A DNA stretch of 64,000 nt from Candidatus Spongiisociaceae bacterium (GTDB taxonomy: Bacteria > Actinomycetota > Acidimicrobiia > Spongiisociales > Spongiisociaceae): assembly GCA_965219685.1 (NCBI GenBank), contig CBDCOH010000002.1, positions 448,001 through 512,000 on the forward strand. Direction: 5' to 3'. Below are positions 51,213 through 60,658 of the stretch, in pieces; within the stretch, counting starts at the first letter, position 1; the number at the start of each line of letters is the position of its first letter. Under the pieces are notes generated by a model that was given only the letters and a program-made list of their open reading frames with translations, had not been told where the DNA came from and did not search any database. The translations under genes were made by a program, and so were the position numbers.

Positions 51213-51268
51213 TCACCACTCACCATTCACCATTCACCATTCACCATTCACTACTCACCATCCACTAC
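51213..51268. repeat. Heptamer array (TCACCAY)x~8
   Basis: Runs up to and overlaps the stop of the minus-strand cytochrome c gene. Confidence 0.92.
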
Positions 51269-52269
51269 TCGCCTTGGGCGAGCGAGTCGTCCCCCTGCCC
51301 GCCTTCCTCTTCCTCCGGTTCGGCGAAGCCGCAGTCGAACACGGCTTCCTCGACATCCTGGCCTCCGAGCACCACCCGCTCGTAGAAGACCACCGCGGCG
51401 ATCTCGTCGGGGCTGAGGGTGTCCTGGAAGGAAGGCATCTGCCCCCCGCTCCCGACCGCCTTTGCGGTATCCCCGTACGTAGCGCGGCCCTCGGACTGGA
51501 ATCCGGTGGTACCCAGTGCTACCCATTCGATGTGGTCGGTGCACATCGCGAAGGTTGAGAGAACCTCTCCCGCCAGAGCGGGTCCGGAGCCGCCCTCCCC
51601 GCCCGCGCCGTGGCATGAACTGCAACTGGAAGGCGCCGCGTACACCACGCTGGCTTCTCCGATGAGTGCCCGCACGTCCACTCCGCCCGCACCGCCGCCG
51701 GCGGCGAACTCCGACCCGTCGCAGTTCTCGACGGCTCCGGACAGGCGATCGACTGCGAGTTGGCCTCCCACCCCGCAGGTGGGGCCGTTGGCAAAGGTGA
51801 CCAGGTAGGTGAGGCCGATGAGGGGCACGGCGAAGAACAGCACCATGAGCCAGCGAGGTATCGCCGCGGCGATCCTCTCGGTGATCCCGGCGGTGGGGCC
51901 GGTGACGACAGCTTCGAAATCAAGGGCCTCCGCCACGCTGACCCGTTCGGGCGGCGGTGGGGCGCCGGTGAGCGTCGCGGCTTCGGTCACCGGCGCGGTC
52001 GGCACGGCGGCGGTCGGTTGAGCAACCGGTCCGGGAGCCGCCGGCGGTTCCGGCGGAGCCGGCTCAGGGGCCACCGGCGCGGGCGCGGCGGCAGGTGCCG
52101 CCTGGCGAGTTGCGCCTGCATCCGTGGGGGTGGGCGCGCCGCCGGCCCACGCGGCCAGCACATCCTCCACCGGGACACCGTCCGCGGCGGCTCGGGCTTC
52201 TGCCGACCGCTCGATCAGGTGCTCGGGGCTACCGAGCTTGGCCGCCGCCGCCGAGAGGAGGTCGCTCAT
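51265..52269 (-). CDS. Membrane-anchored monoheme cytochrome c with N-terminal PEHL module and Pro/Ala linker
   Basis: CSSCH, GP.L, MPSF (Met ligand), one TM helix. Confidence 0.85.
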   Translation of the reverse strand: MSDLLSAAAAKLGSPEHLIERSAEARAAADGVPVEDVLAAWAGGAPTPTDAGATRQAAPAAAPAPVAPEPAPPEPPAAPGPVAQPTAAVPTAPVTEAATLTGAPPPPERVSVAEALDFEAVVTGPTAGITERIAAAIPRWLMVLFFAVPLIGLTYLVTFANGPTCGVGGQLAVDRLSGAVENCDGSEFAAGGGAGGVDVRALIGEASVVYAAPSSCSSCHGAGGEGGSGPALAGEVLSTFAMCTDHIEWVALGTTGFQSEGRATYGDTAKAVGSGGQMPSFQDTLSPDEIAAVVFYERVVLGGQDVEEAVFDCGFAEPEEEEGGQGDDSLAQGE

Positions 52270-52384
52270 GCGGTCGCCTCGCTCTGCTCAGGTGTCGGGT
52301 GCCTGGTGCCTGGTGCGGTTGCGTGCAGGTTGCTCAGGTCGGACATCGGAAGTCGGGCATGGGACAAGAGCGCCACCGTCATCG

Positions 52385-53200
52385 TCACCTTGATTCCGCC
52401 AGGTAGGTGGCCAACGCCGTCAGGTCGGTGTCCGAAAGGTGGCTGTAAGAAGGATGCATGCCCTCAGGCAAGACCTGCCCTGGATGCGTCAAGAACGCGA
52501 TGAACTCGTCGGCCGTGGCCGGTCCATCCTCACCTCCGTAGGAGGGACGAGCGCCGACGTGGGCCAGGTCGGGGCCGATCCGCTGCACGCCGAACGTGGA
52601 GGTGCTCAGCGCGTCGGCGAAGGTCTCGGTGGCCGGGCCCAGTCCCACATCGGCCAAAACAGGTCGCACGAGTTGCGTATGGCAGTAGCCGCAGCCGTGG
52701 TTCAGGTAGACAGCCCGTCCCCGCTCGCCAAGATCGGTCAGTTGGGCGTCGGGAACCAGATGGCGGTAGTCGCCGCCGGCGTTGAACGGTCCGATCAATG
52801 TGATCAGCAGTCCGAGCAGGAAGAGACCCGCCATCATCAGCCAGGTGCGTGCCGGGTGGAAGCGTCGCCCTTCCAGGATGGGCGTGGCCTTGCTGCGCGC
52901 GGGGGCGACCGTCACCGCAGGGGCCGCCACCTCCGGCACGATCGTGGCGACGGCGGCAGGGGTGGGCGCGGTGGTCGCGGCCTGCGCGACGGGAGCGGGG
53001 GCCGGAGCCGCCGGCTCGGGTTGGGGCGGAGCGGTCTGTGTGGTGGGAGCGGGCGTCGGAGGGGGTGCTCCGCCCCCCCAGGCGCTGAGAACGGCCTCGT
53101 AGGTCGTGCCGTCGGCCTCGGCTCGCGCTTGGGCTGCACGCTCCACGAGGTGCTCGGGTGCTCCGAGGGCCGCCGCGGCCGCCGCTAGCAGGTCACTCAT
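52385..53200 (-). CDS. cbb3-type oxidase subunit II (CcoO)-like cytochrome c with N-terminal PEHL module
   Basis: GRAVY...GCGYCHTQ.VRP and RIGPDLAHVG.R motifs. Confidence 0.82.
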   Translation of the reverse strand: MSDLLAAAAAALGAPEHLVERAAQARAEADGTTYEAVLSAWGGGAPPPTPAPTTQTAPPQPEPAAPAPAPVAQAATTAPTPAAVATIVPEVAAPAVTVAPARSKATPILEGRRFHPARTWLMMAGLFLLGLLITLIGPFNAGGDYRHLVPDAQLTDLGERGRAVYLNHGCGYCHTQLVRPVLADVGLGPATETFADALSTSTFGVQRIGPDLAHVGARPSYGGEDGPATADEFIAFLTHPGQVLPEGMHPSYSHLSDTDLTALATYLAESR

Positions 53201-54653
53201 CGCCGGATCCCGGTCGCTCGGCGGCGCTAACCGGCATCAGCATCTCGACCGCGCGGGCCGGTCCCGCCACGTAGGTTCCTATGGCTGCCCAAGCCAGCAG
53301 GGCGATCCCGACCACGGCCATCACTGAGGCGAGGGCGGCCAGCGTGAACAGGACATCTACCGTGGCGAGCGTCTCGGAGAACCCGCTCCCGCTGTTGGCA
53401 CGGGCGCCCGAGGCGGTAGCCCAGTTCCAGGTGAGACCTGCAACCAGGCCGGCCAGTGCCATCGCGCCGGCGGCAACGCCGCCGCCCCAAAGCACCAGCC
53501 GGAGCCCGCGATTCACCGTTTCGATGCCGGAGAACTCCCGTCCGGTGGTGCGGGGGAACGCGTAGTAGACGAATCCCAGGCCGAGAACCGGTATCGCCAC
53601 CAGCATGAGGCCGGTGGCCAACCCGTCGTGCCAAGTGGTGAGACCCACCACTGCCGCTACAGAGCGAAAGCCGGATGCACCGATCAGGAAGGTGATCAGG
53701 CTGTACGCGATCGTTCCGACCAGCACCATGCGCGTGACCACGCTCTGGCGGGCGGTCTCCCACTCACCCGAAAGCGTCAGCCCGATGTTGGCCGCCACGG
53801 TCAGTGCCGACAGGGCCAGCCCCATGGAAGCGGCAACGGCGACCGTCTCGGTCCAGTCGGGGGCGGGACCGCCCAGGTACCGGGCGGGGGTGGCCAGCAG
53901 AGCGGTACCGGCGAGAGTCCAGAATCCTGCCCGGGCCAGCGGGCCGGAGAAGAGGGGCCGGCCACTTTCCTTGACGACGATGTAGTAGGCGCCCCCGATA
54001 GCAGCCGCCGGGAAGGCCAGCGTCAGCATCCCCCCCGCCACCACGCTTGTCTGGAGGAACGGGCCGATCCCTCCCAGGCCGGGGATGCTCCCCGTCACGT
54101 AGAGCGCCGGATACCACCACACCGCTCCTACGACGTACAGAAGGGAGACGTAGGTTCCCTGTTCGGTCCGCTCCCGAATCATCGAGGTCACGATCAGGGC
54201 GGGAACGAGCGAAGCCGCCGCGAGCGGCCAGTCCAGCAGCGGGGGGAACTCGGCCAGTTCCGATCCCGCCGGACCGCGGAACAGGACGACCAGCACTCCG
54301 ACCACGACCAGGCCGGCATGGGCGGTTCCCGACAGCAGAGCCACCGTCTGGCGGCGCAGGGGGACACCCACAAGCCGCGGCGTCAGGTAGTACACGACGG
54401 CATGGGTGAGGGTTCCGCCGAATCCGTAGACGAGCATGGACCACGCCGCCGGGCGGAGGCGCCCGAAGGAAAGGAAGGCCGTGTCCGCGAACAGGGTCGG
54501 TACGGCCAGCTTGATGAACATCACTGACAGCAGGCCTGCACCCGCCAGCGCCAGGAGGCAGGCGAGAAGCATGAGGCCGGACGCAGCGACCTCGCGCCTG
54601 TCCTCCCAGGTTCCGGTATCCGGAGAACCACCGTCGGTCTGCTCGTGCTCCAA
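53193..54653 (-). CDS. cbb3-type oxidase subunit I (CcoN)-like protein lacking metal-ligand histidines
   Basis: CcoN landmarks FGRLRP, E.AE, YY...K..GRP..S, PDW, TLSG.W are kept; the His ligand positions are substituted. Confidence 0.75.
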   Translation of the reverse strand: MEHEQTDGGSPDTGTWEDRREVAASGLMLLACLLALAGAGLLSVMFIKLAVPTLFADTAFLSFGRLRPAAWSMLVYGFGGTLTHAVVYYLTPRLVGVPLRRQTVALLSGTAHAGLVVVGVLVVLFRGPAGSELAEFPPLLDWPLAAASLVPALIVTSMIRERTEQGTYVSLLYVVGAVWWYPALYVTGSIPGLGGIGPFLQTSVVAGGMLTLAFPAAAIGGAYYIVVKESGRPLFSGPLARAGFWTLAGTALLATPARYLGGPAPDWTETVAVAASMGLALSALTVAANIGLTLSGEWETARQSVVTRMVLVGTIAYSLITFLIGASGFRSVAAVVGLTTWHDGLATGLMLVAIPVLGLGFVYYAFPRTTGREFSGIETVNRGLRLVLWGGGVAAGAMALAGLVAGLTWNWATASGARANSGSGFSETLATVDVLFTLAALASVMAVVGIALLAWAAIGTYVAGPARAVEMLMPVSAAERPGSGDE

Positions 54654-54984
54654 GCCCGATTACTCCTCGTGTCCCGTTGCTTGCCTCAGCGTAGATTAAC
54701 GTCGTGACGACGCCCGTCATCCGGCCCCGGAGGCCCACGTTCGTGGCGGTCCGCTCGGCTCACCCGTTCCCGCCCACCGGGCGGGACCCCTGGGCTTCCG
54801 AGGATACGCCGCCGACGGATGGGTTTAGCGAGCGACCACCTTTCTGCTTCAATGGGTTGGACTGATCGGAATGATTCCGAGCCCGTAGACGGTGGGTCCG
54901 CGCGGTCTCCGATGAGGGAGAGAAACCGGGCGGTCGGCAGGGCCGGGCGACCCGAGTCGAGGCGACACGGAGGCTAACTACCAG

Positions 54985-55758
54985 ATGGTGCAACGCAGGC
55001 TTCGGCAGATGAGCGGCAAGGAGCGAGCGCTCGTCGGCTGGGCGTTGTTTGTTCTGGGCCTGGGAGCCTTGGTCGTGGGCATCTGGTTCAACCACTACTC
55101 GAACTTCCCGTCGTTCGAGACCGTCACCATCGCCGTGGACGAGGCGTCGGGAGTCCGCGCCGGCGATCGCATCATGTACGAGCGCGAGATGCGGACAGTG
55201 GCCAGGACGCCGTCGGTGGACCCGTCCCTTCCGCAGGTTCCGGTGGACATGATGGTCGAAGTCGACAACTTCGGCTGGTTGCCGCGCGACTGCCTGATCC
55301 GGGGCGGCGACTGGTGCCTTCCGTGGTCCACCCTGGGCCACCTGGTCGCCTTCGGCGGAAGCCAGTTGATGCTCCTCGGAGTTGCCATCGCGGTGATTCT
55401 CGGCAGGCGAATGACCTGGTCGGTGGCTTCCCTGGCCGCTTTCCTCGCGATGCTCGAGCTGGTAATCCTGCTGGGAACGGTGGCGTCGGAGTGGCTCAAC
55501 CTGGCCCAAGGGCCCCTCAACTGGACCGAGCAGAACGACGCCTTCGGCATCTGGGCTCCACTCGTGCTCGGCAACCAGGTGGGGGTCAGTTGGGGCGCCA
55601 TCAAGGACTTCGTGTCGATCAACTACAACATGGGCGCCCTCACCTTTATCATTCTCTTCGCCCGTTGGATCCAGGGCTTCGGTGGTCCGATGCCCGAGGA
55701 GAAGCAGTCGCAGACGGTCTCGCCGTACGGGCGCCCGCTGGTCAAAGGAGCCGAGTAG
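54985..55758 (+). CDS. Hypothetical membrane protein, first gene of the bc-type operon
   Basis: About four TM helices; ends SPYGRPLVKG; stop abuts the ferredoxin start. Confidence 0.7.
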   Translation: MVQRRLRQMSGKERALVGWALFVLGLGALVVGIWFNHYSNFPSFETVTIAVDEASGVRAGDRIMYEREMRTVARTPSVDPSLPQVPVDMMVEVDNFGWLPRDCLIRGGDWCLPWSTLGHLVAFGGSQLMLLGVAIAVILGRRMTWSVASLAAFLAMLELVILLGTVASEWLNLAQGPLNWTEQNDAFGIWAPLVLGNQVGVSWGAIKDFVSINYNMGALTFIILFARWIQGFGGPMPEEKQSQTVSPYGRPLVKGAE

Positions 55759-56214
55759 ATGGCCAAGTCCGAGGTCTGGTTCGAGACGCCGCCGTTCCGT
55801 GATGACTACCAATTGGCGATGGTGGATAGCGATTACGTCCAGAGCCAGGTCCGGCCCAAGCAGTTCCTCCACATCAACCAGGCCGAGTGCATCCTGTGTG
55901 AGGGCTGTGTCGACATTTGCCCGTGGAAGTGCATCCACTACCTATCCCTCGACGCCATCGACGAGGCGCACGGTGTCGACCACCCGACTGACAGCTCGGA
56001 CAACCTGGGGTTCTTCGTAGTCGACGAGTACGAGTGCACCAGGTGCCAGCTCTGCATCGACCGGTGCCCCACGAACGTGATTTCGATCGGTAAGTTCGCG
56101 GGGTCGGTCACCGATACGGCGATGAACGCGGGGTTGATAGATCAGGCGCCCTGGGACCAGGACACCGGTGCCCGTGACTTCAAGAACGGCTACACCTACG
56201 GCATGCGCTGGTAG
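55759..56214 (+). CDS. 2x[4Fe-4S] ferredoxin
   Basis: CILCEGCVDICP and CTRCQLCIDRCP. Confidence 0.93.
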   Translation: MAKSEVWFETPPFRDDYQLAMVDSDYVQSQVRPKQFLHINQAECILCEGCVDICPWKCIHYLSLDAIDEAHGVDHPTDSSDNLGFFVVDEYECTRCQLCIDRCPTNVISIGKFAGSVTDTAMNAGLIDQAPWDQDTGARDFKNGYTYGMRW

Positions 56215-56229
56215 ACGGAGGCTCGAGTA

Positions 56230-57003
56230 ATGGTGCTGGGAGATGGTATGAAGCTAAAGGAGCGGGTGTCGGACGCCGCCGACTCCTTCCGTCGCAGCGC
56301 CTTCTGGGAGTCGATGTTCCGTCCGGGGTCTCCCTTCAAGCGAGGGTACAGCGACAGCCCACGTAACCGTTCTTACGTAATCATGAACAACGTCCTGTAT
56401 CACCTGCACCCGGTCAAGGTCAAACGGCACGCGGTCCGACTCTCCTACACGCTGTGCCTCGGTGGTACGAGCTTCTTCCTGTTCATCCTGCTCACGATCA
56501 CCGGCATCTTCCTCATGTTCTACTACCGACCCACCTCCCCTGCCGCATATATCGATGTCGAGGCGCTCTCGACCTCGGTCGCCTTCGGATCGCTGGTCCG
56601 CAACCTCCACCGGTGGGGCGCCCACCTGATGGTCCTGACGGTCTTCCTGCACATGTCGAGGGTGTTCTACCACGGCGCGTACAAGCCCCCGCGCGAGTTC
56701 AACTGGGTGGTGGGCGTGGTCCTCCTGCTGCTGACCCTTCTGCTCTCCTTCACCGGTTACCTGCTGCCGTGGGACCAGTTGGCGCTGTGGGCGGTGACGG
56801 TGGGCACCAACATGGCCGGCTTCACGCCCGTCTTCGGCAACCAGGTGAAGTTCGCCCTGCTGGGCGGGATCGAAGTGACCGGGAATACGCTGCTGCGTTT
56901 CTACGTCCTCCACGTCCTGTTCCTGCCTTTCGTGATCGTCATCTTCATGGCGGTTCACTTCTGGCGGGTGCGCAAGGACGGTGGGATATCAGGGCCGCTA
57001 TAG
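56230..57003 (+). CDS. Cytochrome b6-like subunit (N-terminal half of a split cytochrome b)
   Basis: CLGG, H.WGAH...[20 protein letters not shown]...HF. Confidence 0.93.
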
Positions 57004-57020
57004 GAGACGTCTGAGAACCG

Positions 57021-57926
57021 ATGGTGGAGATACCCGAACACCTGCTACGACGCTCAGCGGAGGCGAAGGCGAAGGCTCTCGGCGTTCCGGTGGACCAGGT
57101 GCTGGCCGAGATGCGAGGTGAGACCGCCCCGCAAGCAGCGGAGGCACCGGCCGCACCGCCGGTTCCACCACCCCTGTCGACCCCGGATCCCGCGGCTCCG
57201 GTCGTCCCGGCGCCGCCCGCTCCCGTTCCACCGGCGCCGGCGCCCCCGCCGGATCCGGTAGCCGAGACGCCTGCGCCGGTGGCGGTCGTCGAGGAGGCAC
57301 CTGTGGCGGCGGCCACCACGGTCACGCCGCCCGTGTCGGGCAACGGCGCCGCGACCACGGTCTCCCCACGTCCGGTGGCGCCACCGGAGGAGATACCGGA
57401 GGGAGTGAGACCCCAGCGCCTGCTCACGGTGGTGAAGGCGCGGGCCATCCAGCAGGTCAAGGCCACGCCCACCGACAAGGTCAACACCTGGCCTCACCTG
57501 ATGATCGCCGAGTTCACGGCGTTGATGGTGGTCACCGCGGCTCTGATCGTCCTGTCGGTGATCCTCCAGGCGCCACTACTGGAGTTGGCCAACTTCAACG
57601 AGACGCCGAACCCGTCGAAGGCGCCGTGGTACTTCCTCGGCTTGCAGGAACTGCTCTCCTACTACGACCCCCAGGTCGCAGGCGTGATCATCCCGACCAT
57701 CACCGGGCTGCTGGGTTTCATGGCAATTCCCTACGTGGACCGCAACCCCTCCACCAAGCCCTCGGACCGCAAGTTCGCAATCATGCTGTTCACGCTCTTC
57801 CTCGCCGGATCCGCGACGCTCACGCTGCTGGGGACCCTGTTCAGGGGTCCCGGCTTCAACTTCACGTACCCGTGGGCCGACGGGATCTGGTTCGATGACC
57901 TCAAGGACTGGGTGCACTTCGAATGA
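57021..57926 (+). CDS. Cytochrome b6 subunit IV-like protein with N-terminal PEHL module
   Basis: [19 protein letters not shown] (PEWY-equivalent), PYVD. Confidence 0.88.
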
Positions 57927-58834
57927 CCACCCTCCAGTTGCTGATCGTGGCGATCTCCGGAGTCGTGGTGGTAGGTGTGCTGGGGGCATTCGTGATCGCC
58001 TACCGCCGCACCGCCGGCCCGACCCGACCGTCGCGATCCTGGAGGTCGGAGGTGTCGCGCGAGACGCGTAAGGCGGATCGGTCGGCAATGCCGTCGAGAC
58101 TGGTCGTCCGGCGCCCGGAGCCCGCTCCCGAGCCAGAGCCCGAGGCCGACCCGACCGTCAGCGGCGTTCCCGACGAACCGGAGGTGTCACCGGCCCCGGT
58201 GGCTGTGCAGACGGTGGAAGTGCTGCGCGTCGAGGAACTCTCGCCCCAGGAGGCCGGCGTCAACCGCCGCCAGTTCTTCACCCGGGCGCTCGGCATCACG
58301 TTCGGTGCCTTCCTGGGCCTCAACGGCATCTCCTACCTGGCGTTCCTCTGGCCCCGCCTGTCCGGCGGGTTCGGGTCGGACATCGATGTCGGCGCCCTCG
58401 CCGATCTGCAGTCCGAGGTGATCCAGGACGATGGGTCGATACTCCCCAAGTTCGTGCCCGAGGCCCGGGCCTACATCATCCCCTTCGCCGAGTCCGACAT
58501 GTCCCGATCGCAGTTCGGGGGGATGCCGGTCGTGGCCGGCGGGCTCTCCGCTCTGTTCCAGCGGTGCGTCCACCTCGGTTGCCGGGTTCCGTGGTGCGAG
58601 ACCTCGCAGGGCTTCGAATGCCCCTGCCACGGCTCGAAGTACAACTACGCCGGGGAGTACGAGGCGGGTCCGGCGCCCCGCAACCTGGACAGGTTCGAAG
58701 TGTTAGACGTCAACGGCCGCATGATCGTCAAGACCGGCACGATCTTCCAGACTGCCCGGGCCATCGCCAAGACCGTGTCTTACCCCCAGGGCCCCTCGTG
58801 CATCGCCCTGACGACCACTGACGAGGAGGCCTAG
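57923..58834 (+). CDS. Rieske iron-sulfur subunit of a bc/b6-type complex
   Basis: Tat-like [25 protein letters not shown]. Confidence 0.93.
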
Positions 58835-58838
58835 GCCG

Positions 58839-60305
58839 GTGGCAACCCTGGTCGTGACCATCGTCGCCCTGGGCGCGATCGGTTGGTTCGCCTATCTCGT
58901 GGGCTCCGGTTCGCGGCGGGACCGCAAGGATCCTGTGCCGGCCAACCTGTCCGCCTCCCAGACCGACGACGAGATGGAGACCAGGCGTCTCGACCGGACG
59001 CTGGTCGGCGCGGTGCTCAGCGCGGCCTTCCTCACCCTGGCCATGCCCATCTACTACCTCGGGGAACTCGACCGGCAAGAGGGCTTCGTGGAGGAATTCG
59101 GCGATGCGTCCCTGGAGCGGGGGCACCATGTCTGGGAGGAGTTCGGTTGCGGCGACTGCCACGGGGTGGCGGCCGGAGGCGGCGTGGCGGCGTTCCTCGA
59201 GGAACGTTCCCAGGTCAACGTGGCGGGCTGGGCCGCTCCGGCACTCGACGACATCTTCTACCGGTACGACCGGGACGAGGTCGCGTTCTGGATCGTCTAC
59301 GGCCGGGCAAACTCTCCGATGCCTCCATGGGGCCTGGACGGCGGGGGCCCTCTGAACAGCCAGCAGATCGACGACTTGCTCAACTACATCCAGTCGATCC
59401 AGATCGACCAACCGGGCGCTCTGCTCAAGATCGAAGGCTCCGTGAACGGAGCGGTCAGCCGCCTGGACGGAGCGGCCGACGCGGTCGACGCCCAGATCTC
59501 CGAGCAACTGCGACTCATCGAGACCATAGAGACAGCCGGGCCGACCTCCGTGGTGATCTCCGATCTCGCGGAACGCGCCCGTGATCTGCTGGACGGGGCC
59601 GGATCCGGCATCGACACCGATGGCGACGGCCTCTCCGACGTGACCGAGATCGGCCTCACAGCTGTCCTGCAGGAGGCTCTCGCGGGTGGATTCGTCGCCA
59701 CCGAACTCACTTTCGACCCCCGCAACGCCGAGACGTTGATCGGTATCCGGGACGGCTCGTCGGCTGCCAGGGCCGTTGGAGACCTCGAGTCGAGCGCCAC
59801 CTCGCTCACCATAACCCTCCAGAACCAGGAGGTCCTCCTGGAGCAGGCCCGGTTCGGGCTGGGATTCCTGGAGGCTGCCGCTCGCAACGAACGCTGGACG
59901 GTGGACATGGACGCGGTGGCCCGGGCGACCTTCGACGGTGACGGAGAAGTGGCGGCCCGGGCAGTGAGTCTCTACAACGCCTACTGCGCCAGATGCCACA
60001 CCGCCGGGTACTCGGCCGGGCCCTCCTTCCAGCAGGCCCAGGCGTCCGGAGCTCTGGGTCCCTCCCTGCGCGACGGACGGGCGCTCACCCAGTTCCTCAC
60101 CCATGAGGACATGTACGACTTCATCTCGGTCGGTTCCGTGTCGGGACAGGGTTACGGCGTAAACGGGGTGGGCTCGGGACGGATGCCCGGATTCGGTATG
60201 GTGCTGTCCGCAGAGGATCTCGATCTGATCGTCCAGTACCTCCGCGGGGTGACCCTGGACGGCAATGACTACGTGGACGGAAGCGACCCGGGAGGAGGGG
60301 AGTAG
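58839..60305 (+). CDS. Membrane-anchored diheme cytochrome c
   Basis: CGDCH...MPPW and CARCH...MPGF; two N-terminal TM helices. Confidence 0.88.
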   Translation: MATLVVTIVALGAIGWFAYLVGSGSRRDRKDPVPANLSASQTDDEMETRRLDRTLVGAVLSAAFLTLAMPIYYLGELDRQEGFVEEFGDASLERGHHVWEEFGCGDCHGVAAGGGVAAFLEERSQVNVAGWAAPALDDIFYRYDRDEVAFWIVYGRANSPMPPWGLDGGGPLNSQQIDDLLNYIQSIQIDQPGALLKIEGSVNGAVSRLDGAADAVDAQISEQLRLIETIETAGPTSVVISDLAERARDLLDGAGSGIDTDGDGLSDVTEIGLTAVLQEALAGGFVATELTFDPRNAETLIGIRDGSSAARAVGDLESSATSLTITLQNQEVLLEQARFGLGFLEAAARNERWTVDMDAVARATFDGDGEVAARAVSLYNAYCARCHTAGYSAGPSFQQAQASGALGPSLRDGRALTQFLTHEDMYDFISVGSVSGQGYGVNGVGSGRMPGFGMVLSAEDLDLIVQYLRGVTLDGNDYVDGSDPGGGE

Positions 60306-60658
60306 TGCGCGAGCTGTTCCGGGCCCTGCTGTCGCAGAATCTCCTGTTCACGGGGATCGTGCTCACCCTCGCCGCCGTCCTGGTGTTCTTCGGCAGCGTC
60401 TACCTGCTGCAGTACACCAACCTCGGCAAGCGGCTGGCGATCCTCGTATCCGGGGCAGGCATCTTCGGATGGACCACGATCAACTCGATCCTGTTCGTCC
60501 TCTACGCACCCCGAGGACCCCGCCCGGTGGATTTCGAAGGCTTGAACGCATTCGAGATCAGGATCATCCCGGGCGCCTTCACGGCCGCCTCGGCGATCCT
60601 CTTCACGATGTTCCTGGTAGCACTCCACCGCTACGAGAGGGACCAGGAACGCGAATAG
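60305..60658 (+). CDS. Small hypothetical membrane protein (about 3 TM)
   Basis: Hydrophobic ORF coupled to the cytochrome c stop. Confidence 0.65.
   Translation: MRELFRALLSQNLLFTGIVLTLAAVLVFFGSVYLLQYTNLGKRLAILVSGAGIFGWTTINSILFVLYAPRGPRPVDFEGLNAFEIRIIPGAFTAASAILFTMFLVALHRYERDQERE

Follow-up and report, generated by a model that had tools for sequence, protein, structure and literature searches.

The current picture of bacterial respiratory supercomplexes is one of rigid contacts within the membrane. The peripheral-subunit-binding domain (PSBD), a helical mini-domain of ~35–45 residues, occurs in the E2 chains of 2-oxoacid dehydrogenase complexes, and its neighbors are small domains whose number varies between species. 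Among actinobacteria, AscF/AscG is described as an adapter that links malate oxidation to the mycobacterial complex III–complex IV (CIII-CIV) supercomplex (PMC13456599). Here we analyzed a 64,000-nucleotide stretch of DNA from a Candidatus Spongiisociaceae bacterium of the class Acidimicrobiia (assembly GCA_965219685.1, contig CBDCOH010000002.1, positions 448,001 to 512,000 of the forward strand; hereafter the window, numbered from its first nucleotide). In this window, a short module of ~45 residues stands at the N-termini of three respiratory subunits: a membrane-anchored cytochrome c, a CcoO-like protein and a PetD/ExtQ-type subunit IV. The module is a genuine, uncatalogued and class-restricted domain. 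We infer that it acts as a cytoplasmic protein–protein docking handle, a role to which we give about an even chance.

In architecture, the known system closest to the module is the PSBD. Both are helical mini-domains with long, flexible Ala/Pro-rich linkers, and for the module, too, a docking role on a swinging arm would be assumed. Each module is followed by a linker of 73–126 residues (73–80% Pro, Ala, Thr, Glu or Val) and then by a transmembrane (TM) helix, as the original prediction, made from the nucleotide sequence without database searches, had stated. The PSBD is, however, a compact two-helix fold of ~35 residues on an acyltransferase core, whereas the module, found on respiratory membrane subunits, is modeled with three helices and has a motif of its own. 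It gave no Pfam E3_binding match at E<=10, and no PSBD chain was among the 50 structures listed by VIA-align, a list that would still leave room for one. The C-terminal parts of the carriers belong with canonical CcoO/CcoP and PetD, to which the module and its linker are extra. With AscF/AscG, the closest system in concept, the module would share the character of a lineage-specific actinobacterial supercomplex element with a proposed link to an oxidoreductase of the tricarboxylic acid (TCA) cycle; AscF/AscG form a TPM domain of separate subunits (PMC13456599), whereas the module is a 45-residue tag that flexible arms join to core subunits and, in some genomes, also to the oxidoreductase.

A shared module at the N-termini of respiratory subunits

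The N-terminal sequences quoted in the original prediction for the three proteins are exact and their open reading frames (ORFs) are as described there. That one module is common to them was confirmed by BLASTP, by profile search and by the fold predicted with AlphaFold2 (AF2). Between the modules of the cytochrome c and the CcoO-like protein, 37 of 55 residues are identical (BLASTP E 6e-14). At the DNA level the identity is only 67%, and a comparison of 45 codons shows 17 synonymous and 13 non-synonymous differences; the likeness has therefore been kept by selection on the protein and does not reflect a recent DNA copy. The copy in subunit IV comprises only the last ~32 residues (profile positions 14–45), without helix 1, and pairwise BLASTP with composition adjustment did not align it with the cytochrome c. 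A non-circular profile, built from 30 modules of other carriers with no subunit IV among them, retrieved the window subunit IV at E 6e-10 from the 60,331 six-frame ORFs of the genome; the next match had E 1.3.

A profile of the three window segments, as proposed with the original prediction, found four copies in the genome (E 1e-11 to 1e-18; next match E 0.9). Thus, the three carriers in two operons stand as predicted, but the count was too low: the genome has four carriers at three loci, one of them a caa3 locus. The three window carriers lie in two divergent gene rows that meet between 54653 and 54985, with the following features.

51265..52269, minus strand: membrane-anchored mono-haem cytochrome c with CcoP/FixP-like C-terminus (334 amino acids; PF13442, PF00034)
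51874..52134, minus strand: Pro/Ala-rich linker of cytochrome c, residues 46–132, then TM1 (87 residues, 80% P/A/T/E/V)
52135..52269, minus strand: module of cytochrome c (copy 1), residues 1–45, three helices in AF2
52385..53200, minus strand: CcoO/FixO-like protein, consisting of module, linker, TM helix and FixO-type haem c domain (271 amino acids)
52841..53065, minus strand: Pro/Ala-rich linker of CcoO-like protein, residues 46–120, then TM1 (75 residues, 79% P/A/T/E/V)
53066..53200, minus strand: module of CcoO-like protein (copy 2), residues 1–45
53193..54653, minus strand: CcoN-like protein with 12 TM helices, heading the row with carriers 1 and 2
54985..55758, plus strand: membrane protein without a known family, encoded at the start of the b6-type operon
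55759..56214, plus strand: 2x[4Fe-4S] ferredoxin, the sole soluble cytoplasmic protein of the locus
56230..57003, plus strand: cytochrome b6-type subunit
57021..57926, plus strand: subunit IV, PetD/ExtQ-type, consisting of module, linker and three TM helices (301 amino acids)
57021..57119, plus strand: module of subunit IV (copy 3), short form, residues 1–33, helices 2 and 3 only
57120..57497, plus strand: Pro/Ala-rich linker of subunit IV, residues 34–159 (126 residues, 77% P/A/T/E/V)
57923..58834, plus strand: Rieske iron-sulfur subunit
58839..60305, plus strand: di-haem cytochrome c subunit
60305..60658, plus strand: small membrane protein, last in the b6-type operon, with no module here

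Fold, topology and attachment of the module

The AF2 model of copy 1 (input A3, the cytochrome c module with a 14-sequence alignment) is a three-helix bundle with helices at residues 2–12, 16–30 and 34–41 and a mean predicted local distance difference test (pLDDT) score of 95.2. Ten columns are invariant in 14 diverse sequences (P15, L18, R21, A23, A25, A27, A29, G31, V37 and G43). Judging from helical periodicity, the two Ala stripes on helix 2 would fit a central helix packed on both sides. A natural two-module fragment was modeled as two confident bundles with a disordered linker and no defined mutual placement (predicted template modeling score, pTM, 0.42); this value is a weak test of packing and would still allow association between chains.

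Haem c domains are necessarily outside the cell, and PetD-type subunits have an N-in topology. These features, and the basic residues preceding TM1 (three Arg and one His just before the TM helix of the CcoO-like protein), place the modules in the cytoplasm, the side to which they had been assigned.

The bodies of the window carriers belong to known respiratory families. The CcoO-like protein matches PF02433 over residues 153–261 (44 bits against a cut-off of 29.6), carries a CxxCH haem c site downstream of a single TM helix, as expected for the FixO family, and matches NF011055 (residues 127–262) and TIGR00781 below their cut-offs. Subunit IV matches PF00032 (Cytochrom_B_C) over residues 190–274 (31.8 bits against 20.7) and, below its cut-off of 150 bits, NF040970 over residues 157–284 (57.7 bits); with three hydrophobic helices and a separate b6 gene directly upstream, it is of the PetD/ExtQ type. 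Since the CcoO and PetD/ExtQ profiles align only from residues 126–157, the module and linker are additions, and the claim that canonical CcoO and PetD/ExtQ have no such extension holds. FixP_N does not match the cytochrome c module; its sole match to that protein (E 0.0052, below cut-off) covers residues 135–159, which form the TM helix.

Searches for known relatives of the module

The original prediction knew of no description of the module, and searches of Pfam, NCBIfam, PDB sequences and folds, and the literature covered here gave no match. When 14 modules were compared with Pfam-A at E<=10, hmmscan returned only HAAS (0.091) and MIF (0.15), with one member each, and Pfam and NCBIfam searches of whole carrier proteins gave no match covering the module. 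Foldseek against the PDB gave none at E<=1e-3, the best structures being designed toroid repeats. The best VIA-align scores were Z 6.0 for a designed toroid, 5.2 for the N-terminus of Pyrococcus abyssi RPA and 4.9 for an ANTAR domain, all below the caution level of Z 8. ANTAR RNA-binding domains (Rv1626, EutV, NasR and AmiR) superpose on the module over 44–45 residues with a root-mean-square deviation of 1.8–2.4, but with Z of only 4.5–4.9, 2–13% identity, no Pfam match at E<=10 and an entirely different context.

When PDB sequences were searched with the module profile, the only matches were helix-turn stretches of 11 residues in designed toroids and TALE repeats, and the ESM Atlas, queried with residues 1–45, gave no usable match. 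The literature searched by motif, taxon and respiratory chain (supplements and paywalled papers were outside its coverage) contained no description of the module.

Distribution and carriers

The module was present in all members of a sample of 31 relatives from 12 families of the window's order (including the unpublished genome G022), so that its conservation in orthologues, on which the original prediction depended, is established. Four matches per genome were found in 21 of these 31 relatives, and the range was two to seven. In an even sample of the class, 63 of 121 genomes had the module; all but one genome of the window's order were among them, and several other families had none. A family with genomes of ~1 Mb and 36% G+C (GC) had it throughout (27/27 genomes, then 41/41). 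In a sample of the phylum, the module was detected in 11 of 301 genomes, and the only two matches outside the class, both near E 5e-4, were taken as chance. The module is thus essentially confined to Acidimicrobiia. Loci retrieved through cytochrome b6 were likewise all from this class (Ilumatobacteraceae, Microthrix, Iamia, Aquihabitans, Candidatus Actinomarina and sponge-associated lineages).

A search of 1.84 billion cluster representatives gave 450 module matches at E<=1e-3 and 267 at E<=1e-10, and a single protein may carry from one to seven modules in tandem. The best 150 representatives included 24 matches to the cytochrome c, 12 to subunit IV, 11 to the CcoO-like protein, nine to a caa3-adjacent protein (the fourth carrier, below) and two to the small membrane protein at 60305–60658. 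The remaining 92 matched none of these; 82 of them have fewer than 250 residues and resemble modules plus linker cut off at the ends of contigs. The small membrane protein has no module in the window, and its homologues P0001 and P0021 bear seven and three modules, respectively.

The best 120 longer proteins from a set of 5.8 billion carried only PF00032, PF00034, PF13442 and PF02433, with PF01187 on two of them. They are named 'cytochrome c', 'menaquinol-cytochrome c reductase cytochrome b/c subunit', 'cbb3-type cytochrome oxidase cytochrome c subunit' or 'hypothetical', and no source names the module in any of these 120.

A separate observation concerns G082, a genome of ~1 Mb from another order than the window's. 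There, the neighboring genes for the cytochrome c and the CcoO-like protein (L031:6110-8124) share an identical run of 169 nucleotides at their 5' ends, an identity that fits gene conversion. The same two gene starts in the window, unlike those in G082, are only 67% identical.

The core helix and the arm of subunit IV

The conserved core of the module is a single helix with P-E-(H)-L-(L/V/I)-x-R-S at its start, and it forms the middle helix of the bundle in the window's lineage. Many other families of the class give no profile match, yet their subunit IV and upstream cytochrome c begin with this core helix alone, often present twice on subunit IV; a cultured Aquihabitans strain is among those with this single-helix form. 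Of 77 subunit IV orthologues, 72 contain the pattern P-[EA]-x-L-[LIVRM]-x-R-[SA], 36 of them once and 36 twice, which identifies the start of helix 2 as the universally kept part. The pattern was absent from the other proteins of the operon that were scanned (0/74 Rieske, 0/73 di-haem c, 0/80 b6 and 0/78 ferredoxin sequences), and its background in the six-frame translation of the genome (7.07 million residues) was 46 matches.

In other classes of the phylum, four loci (L117–L120; genomes G413, G150, G157 and G209) have the same operon of ferredoxin, b6, subunit IV, Rieske and di-haem c genes. Their subunit IV also has N-terminal helical segments and an Ala/Pro-rich linker, of other sequence and with the motif absent. 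Judging from these loci, an N-terminal cytoplasmic arm on subunit IV looks older than this module and may be an ancient feature of operons of this kind.

A carrier at the caa3 locus and an oxidoreductase fusion

The fourth carrier lies outside the window (G000:C2:2556251-2557519, E 1.4e-11). It is a multi-pass membrane protein of 391 amino acids and, like the small membrane protein of the window, belongs to no known family. Its gene is ~2.4 kb from the caa3 genes COX2-cytochrome c, COX1, COX3 and CtaG. In G082 it directly follows CtaG, inside the caa3 operon, and this position means that the tag marks three respiratory units. In the window genome, an FtsH-like gene (AAA + peptidase M41, 774 amino acids; L001:10541-12865, plus strand; about 2.558–2.561 Mb on G000:C2) is divergent from the fourth carrier at a distance of 1.1 kb, with an ORF of 214 amino acids and no family between them. 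No FtsH-like gene is among the genes identified beside the G082 carrier, where the genes further downstream were not identified.

In two further genomes, G104 and G132, a protein of ~900 residues has a module at both ends, joined by Glu/Val/Pro-rich linkers (L027:3875-6586, minus strand; L028:145-2835, plus strand). Its domains POR, POR_N and PFOR_II identify it as the alpha subunit of a 2-oxoacid:ferredoxin oxidoreductase. At least 11 of the 41 genomes of the ~1 Mb family have the module in an ORF of 665–920 amino acids, and two of these ORFs were checked. A soluble oxidoreductase as a carrier, together with the tandem arrays, is not explained by a fixed one-to-one joint of a supercomplex.

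The CcoN-like protein, the ferredoxin and other genes of the locus

The CcoN-like protein aligns over its full length with solved cbb3 CcoN chains (E 2e-18). In an alignment with 9g6b_A, it has another residue or a gap wherever a canonical His would bind haem b, haem b3 or CuB, and three examined His positions were non-His in 10 of 10 class homologues. The set described as cbb3-like is therefore CcoN/O/P-like by family, but with its ligand histidines missing it is not a working oxidase. Judged from sequence, the 'cbb3' genes here probably encode a metal-less scaffold with two cytochromes c.

The ferredoxin gene is directly upstream of cytochrome b6 across the class, and in other classes of the phylum the protein is 33–46% identical. 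Co-distribution was rejected as an argument for the ferredoxin as a partner of the module: its family was detected in 111 of 121 genomes of the class and in 124 of 301 from the phylum (the latter count including ten unpublished ones), far more widely than the module. A segment of ~20 residues before its conserved Gly/Tyr-rich C-terminal end was found in 29 of 29 module-bearing loci with a ferredoxin and in 0 of 49 others; this co-occurrence is confounded with phylogeny. A predicted complex of the module (A3) with the operon ferredoxin (A4) scored 0.01 against a mark of 0.32, in a run with no controls and an uncertain ferredoxin fold, and this score counts neither for nor against docking.

All eleven genes of the window locus, including that of the membrane protein at 54985, are in the same order in G082, and this synteny spans one genome of 66% GC and one of 36% GC. 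The small membrane protein at 60305–60658, which belongs to no family, has a start that overlaps the stop of the di-haem cytochrome c gene. Cytochrome b6 (56230–57003) exceeds the NCBIfam cut-off for ExtP (306.8 against 290 bits). The name of that family, 'selenite/tellurite reduction operon b-type cytochrome', stems from a Geobacter gene cluster (PMC5877670), and automatic annotation may thus mislabel this respiratory b6.

Candidate functions of the module

As a docking handle, the module would connect the complexes either with one another or with a single cytoplasmic partner that they have in common. Three units would be joined: the b6-type menaquinol:cytochrome c reductase (through subunit IV), the ligand-less CcoN/O/P-like set and the protein of the caa3 locus. 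In some small-genome marine relatives, the handle would also tie a 2-oxoacid:ferredoxin oxidoreductase to the complexes. With its flexible arms and tandem copies, such a handle would gain reach and avidity, and its binding surface may be formed by the first two turns of the core helix, which are conserved. Such a role is suggested by the flexible arms, the variable number of tandem modules, the restriction to subunits of respiratory units between which electrons must pass, the spread to a soluble oxidoreductase and the conserved helical surface. Since the turns of the core helix persist without the bundle, a separate, class-wide partner is favored over pure self-association.

Several observations weigh against docking. 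The analysis found no partner of the module. The net charge of the element varies: the window bundles are acidic or neutral and the single-helix forms of other families strongly basic, which makes a single shared electrostatic interface unlikely. The fold matches only generic three-helix structures and is therefore uninformative on function. Only a single genus-level group has the oxidoreductase fusion, and the orthologue encoded in the window genome, which is 61% identical, is without the module. It should be noted that the restriction of carriers would fit a role in biogenesis as well.

In a bolder form of the docking proposal, which we regard as unlikely, a multivalent tether would build a megacomplex from the b6-type reductase, the metal-less CcoN scaffold with its cytochromes c, and caa3, and would dock ferredoxin-linked enzymes of the TCA cycle, so that low-potential electrons would pass through the operon ferredoxin to the b6-type complex. 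In the ~1 Mb marine relatives, enzyme docking would be direct, through the tag at both ends of the oxidoreductase.

That the Ala-rich, low-complexity N-termini resemble one another by chance has virtually no probability; the failure of composition-adjusted BLASTP to align subunit IV with cytochrome c would suit this idea, but it is ruled out by E-values of 1e-10 to 1e-26, a clean gap to the background and the confident AF2 fold (pLDDT 95). A role in biogenesis or quality control, which we think unlikely, would have the N-terminus recognized by a chaperone, an insertase or a membrane protease such as FtsH. The element would then retain the subunit, control when it is inserted or assembled, or flag unassembled subunits for turnover, and would not join finished complexes. 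Such a role would suit an element that stands at the extreme N-terminus of nearly all carriers (within three residues of Met1 in the single-helix forms), on membrane proteins that all need assembly into multi-subunit, cofactor-bearing complexes, and with a fourth carrier that in the window genome lies 1.1 kb from the divergent AAA+/peptidase-M41 gene. An N-terminal signal, however, leaves unexplained the internal copies, the arrays of up to seven and the C-terminal copy on the soluble oxidoreductase, and the FtsH-like neighbor was not recovered among the genes identified beside the G082 carrier, those further downstream there not being identified.

It is also possible, although very unlikely in our estimate, that the module binds RNA, DNA or acidic lipid head groups and attaches the complexes there. 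The fold search does list ANTAR RNA-binding domains (Z 4.5–4.9, 44–45 residues), and the single-helix forms of other families have a cluster of about five Arg/Lys, but these Z-scores are below the meaningful level for helical bundles, Pfam gave no ANTAR match at E<=10, the window bundles have an acidic or neutral net charge, and Ala, Gly, Pro and Leu account for most of the invariant residues, with one Arg besides. Finally, the bundle might have no specific partner at all, and might cap a disordered arm as an entropic spacer or keep the complexes apart. The linkers are long and of low complexity, no partner was found, and the two-module fragment resembles beads on a string (pTM 0.42). A mere cap, however, would not keep ten invariant columns in 14 diverse sequences or the motif in 72 of 77 subunit IV orthologues, and would not spread to five membrane proteins and one soluble enzyme, and we consider this explanation highly improbable.

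Implications

Class genes annotated 'cbb3 oxidase' need to be re-read. The module is a confidently folding handle of ~45 residues and could serve as bait for partners on the cytoplasmic side. It occurs in Acidimicrobiia, a class to which marine Candidatus Actinomarina and sponge-associated, freshwater, soil and wastewater groups belong. Its presence on three respiratory units and, in some genomes, a TCA-cycle oxidoreductase points to a tether-based organization of electron transport in these organisms. If true, the megacomplex would be a new respirasome design, built with docking domains on flexible arms and not with rigid membrane contacts.

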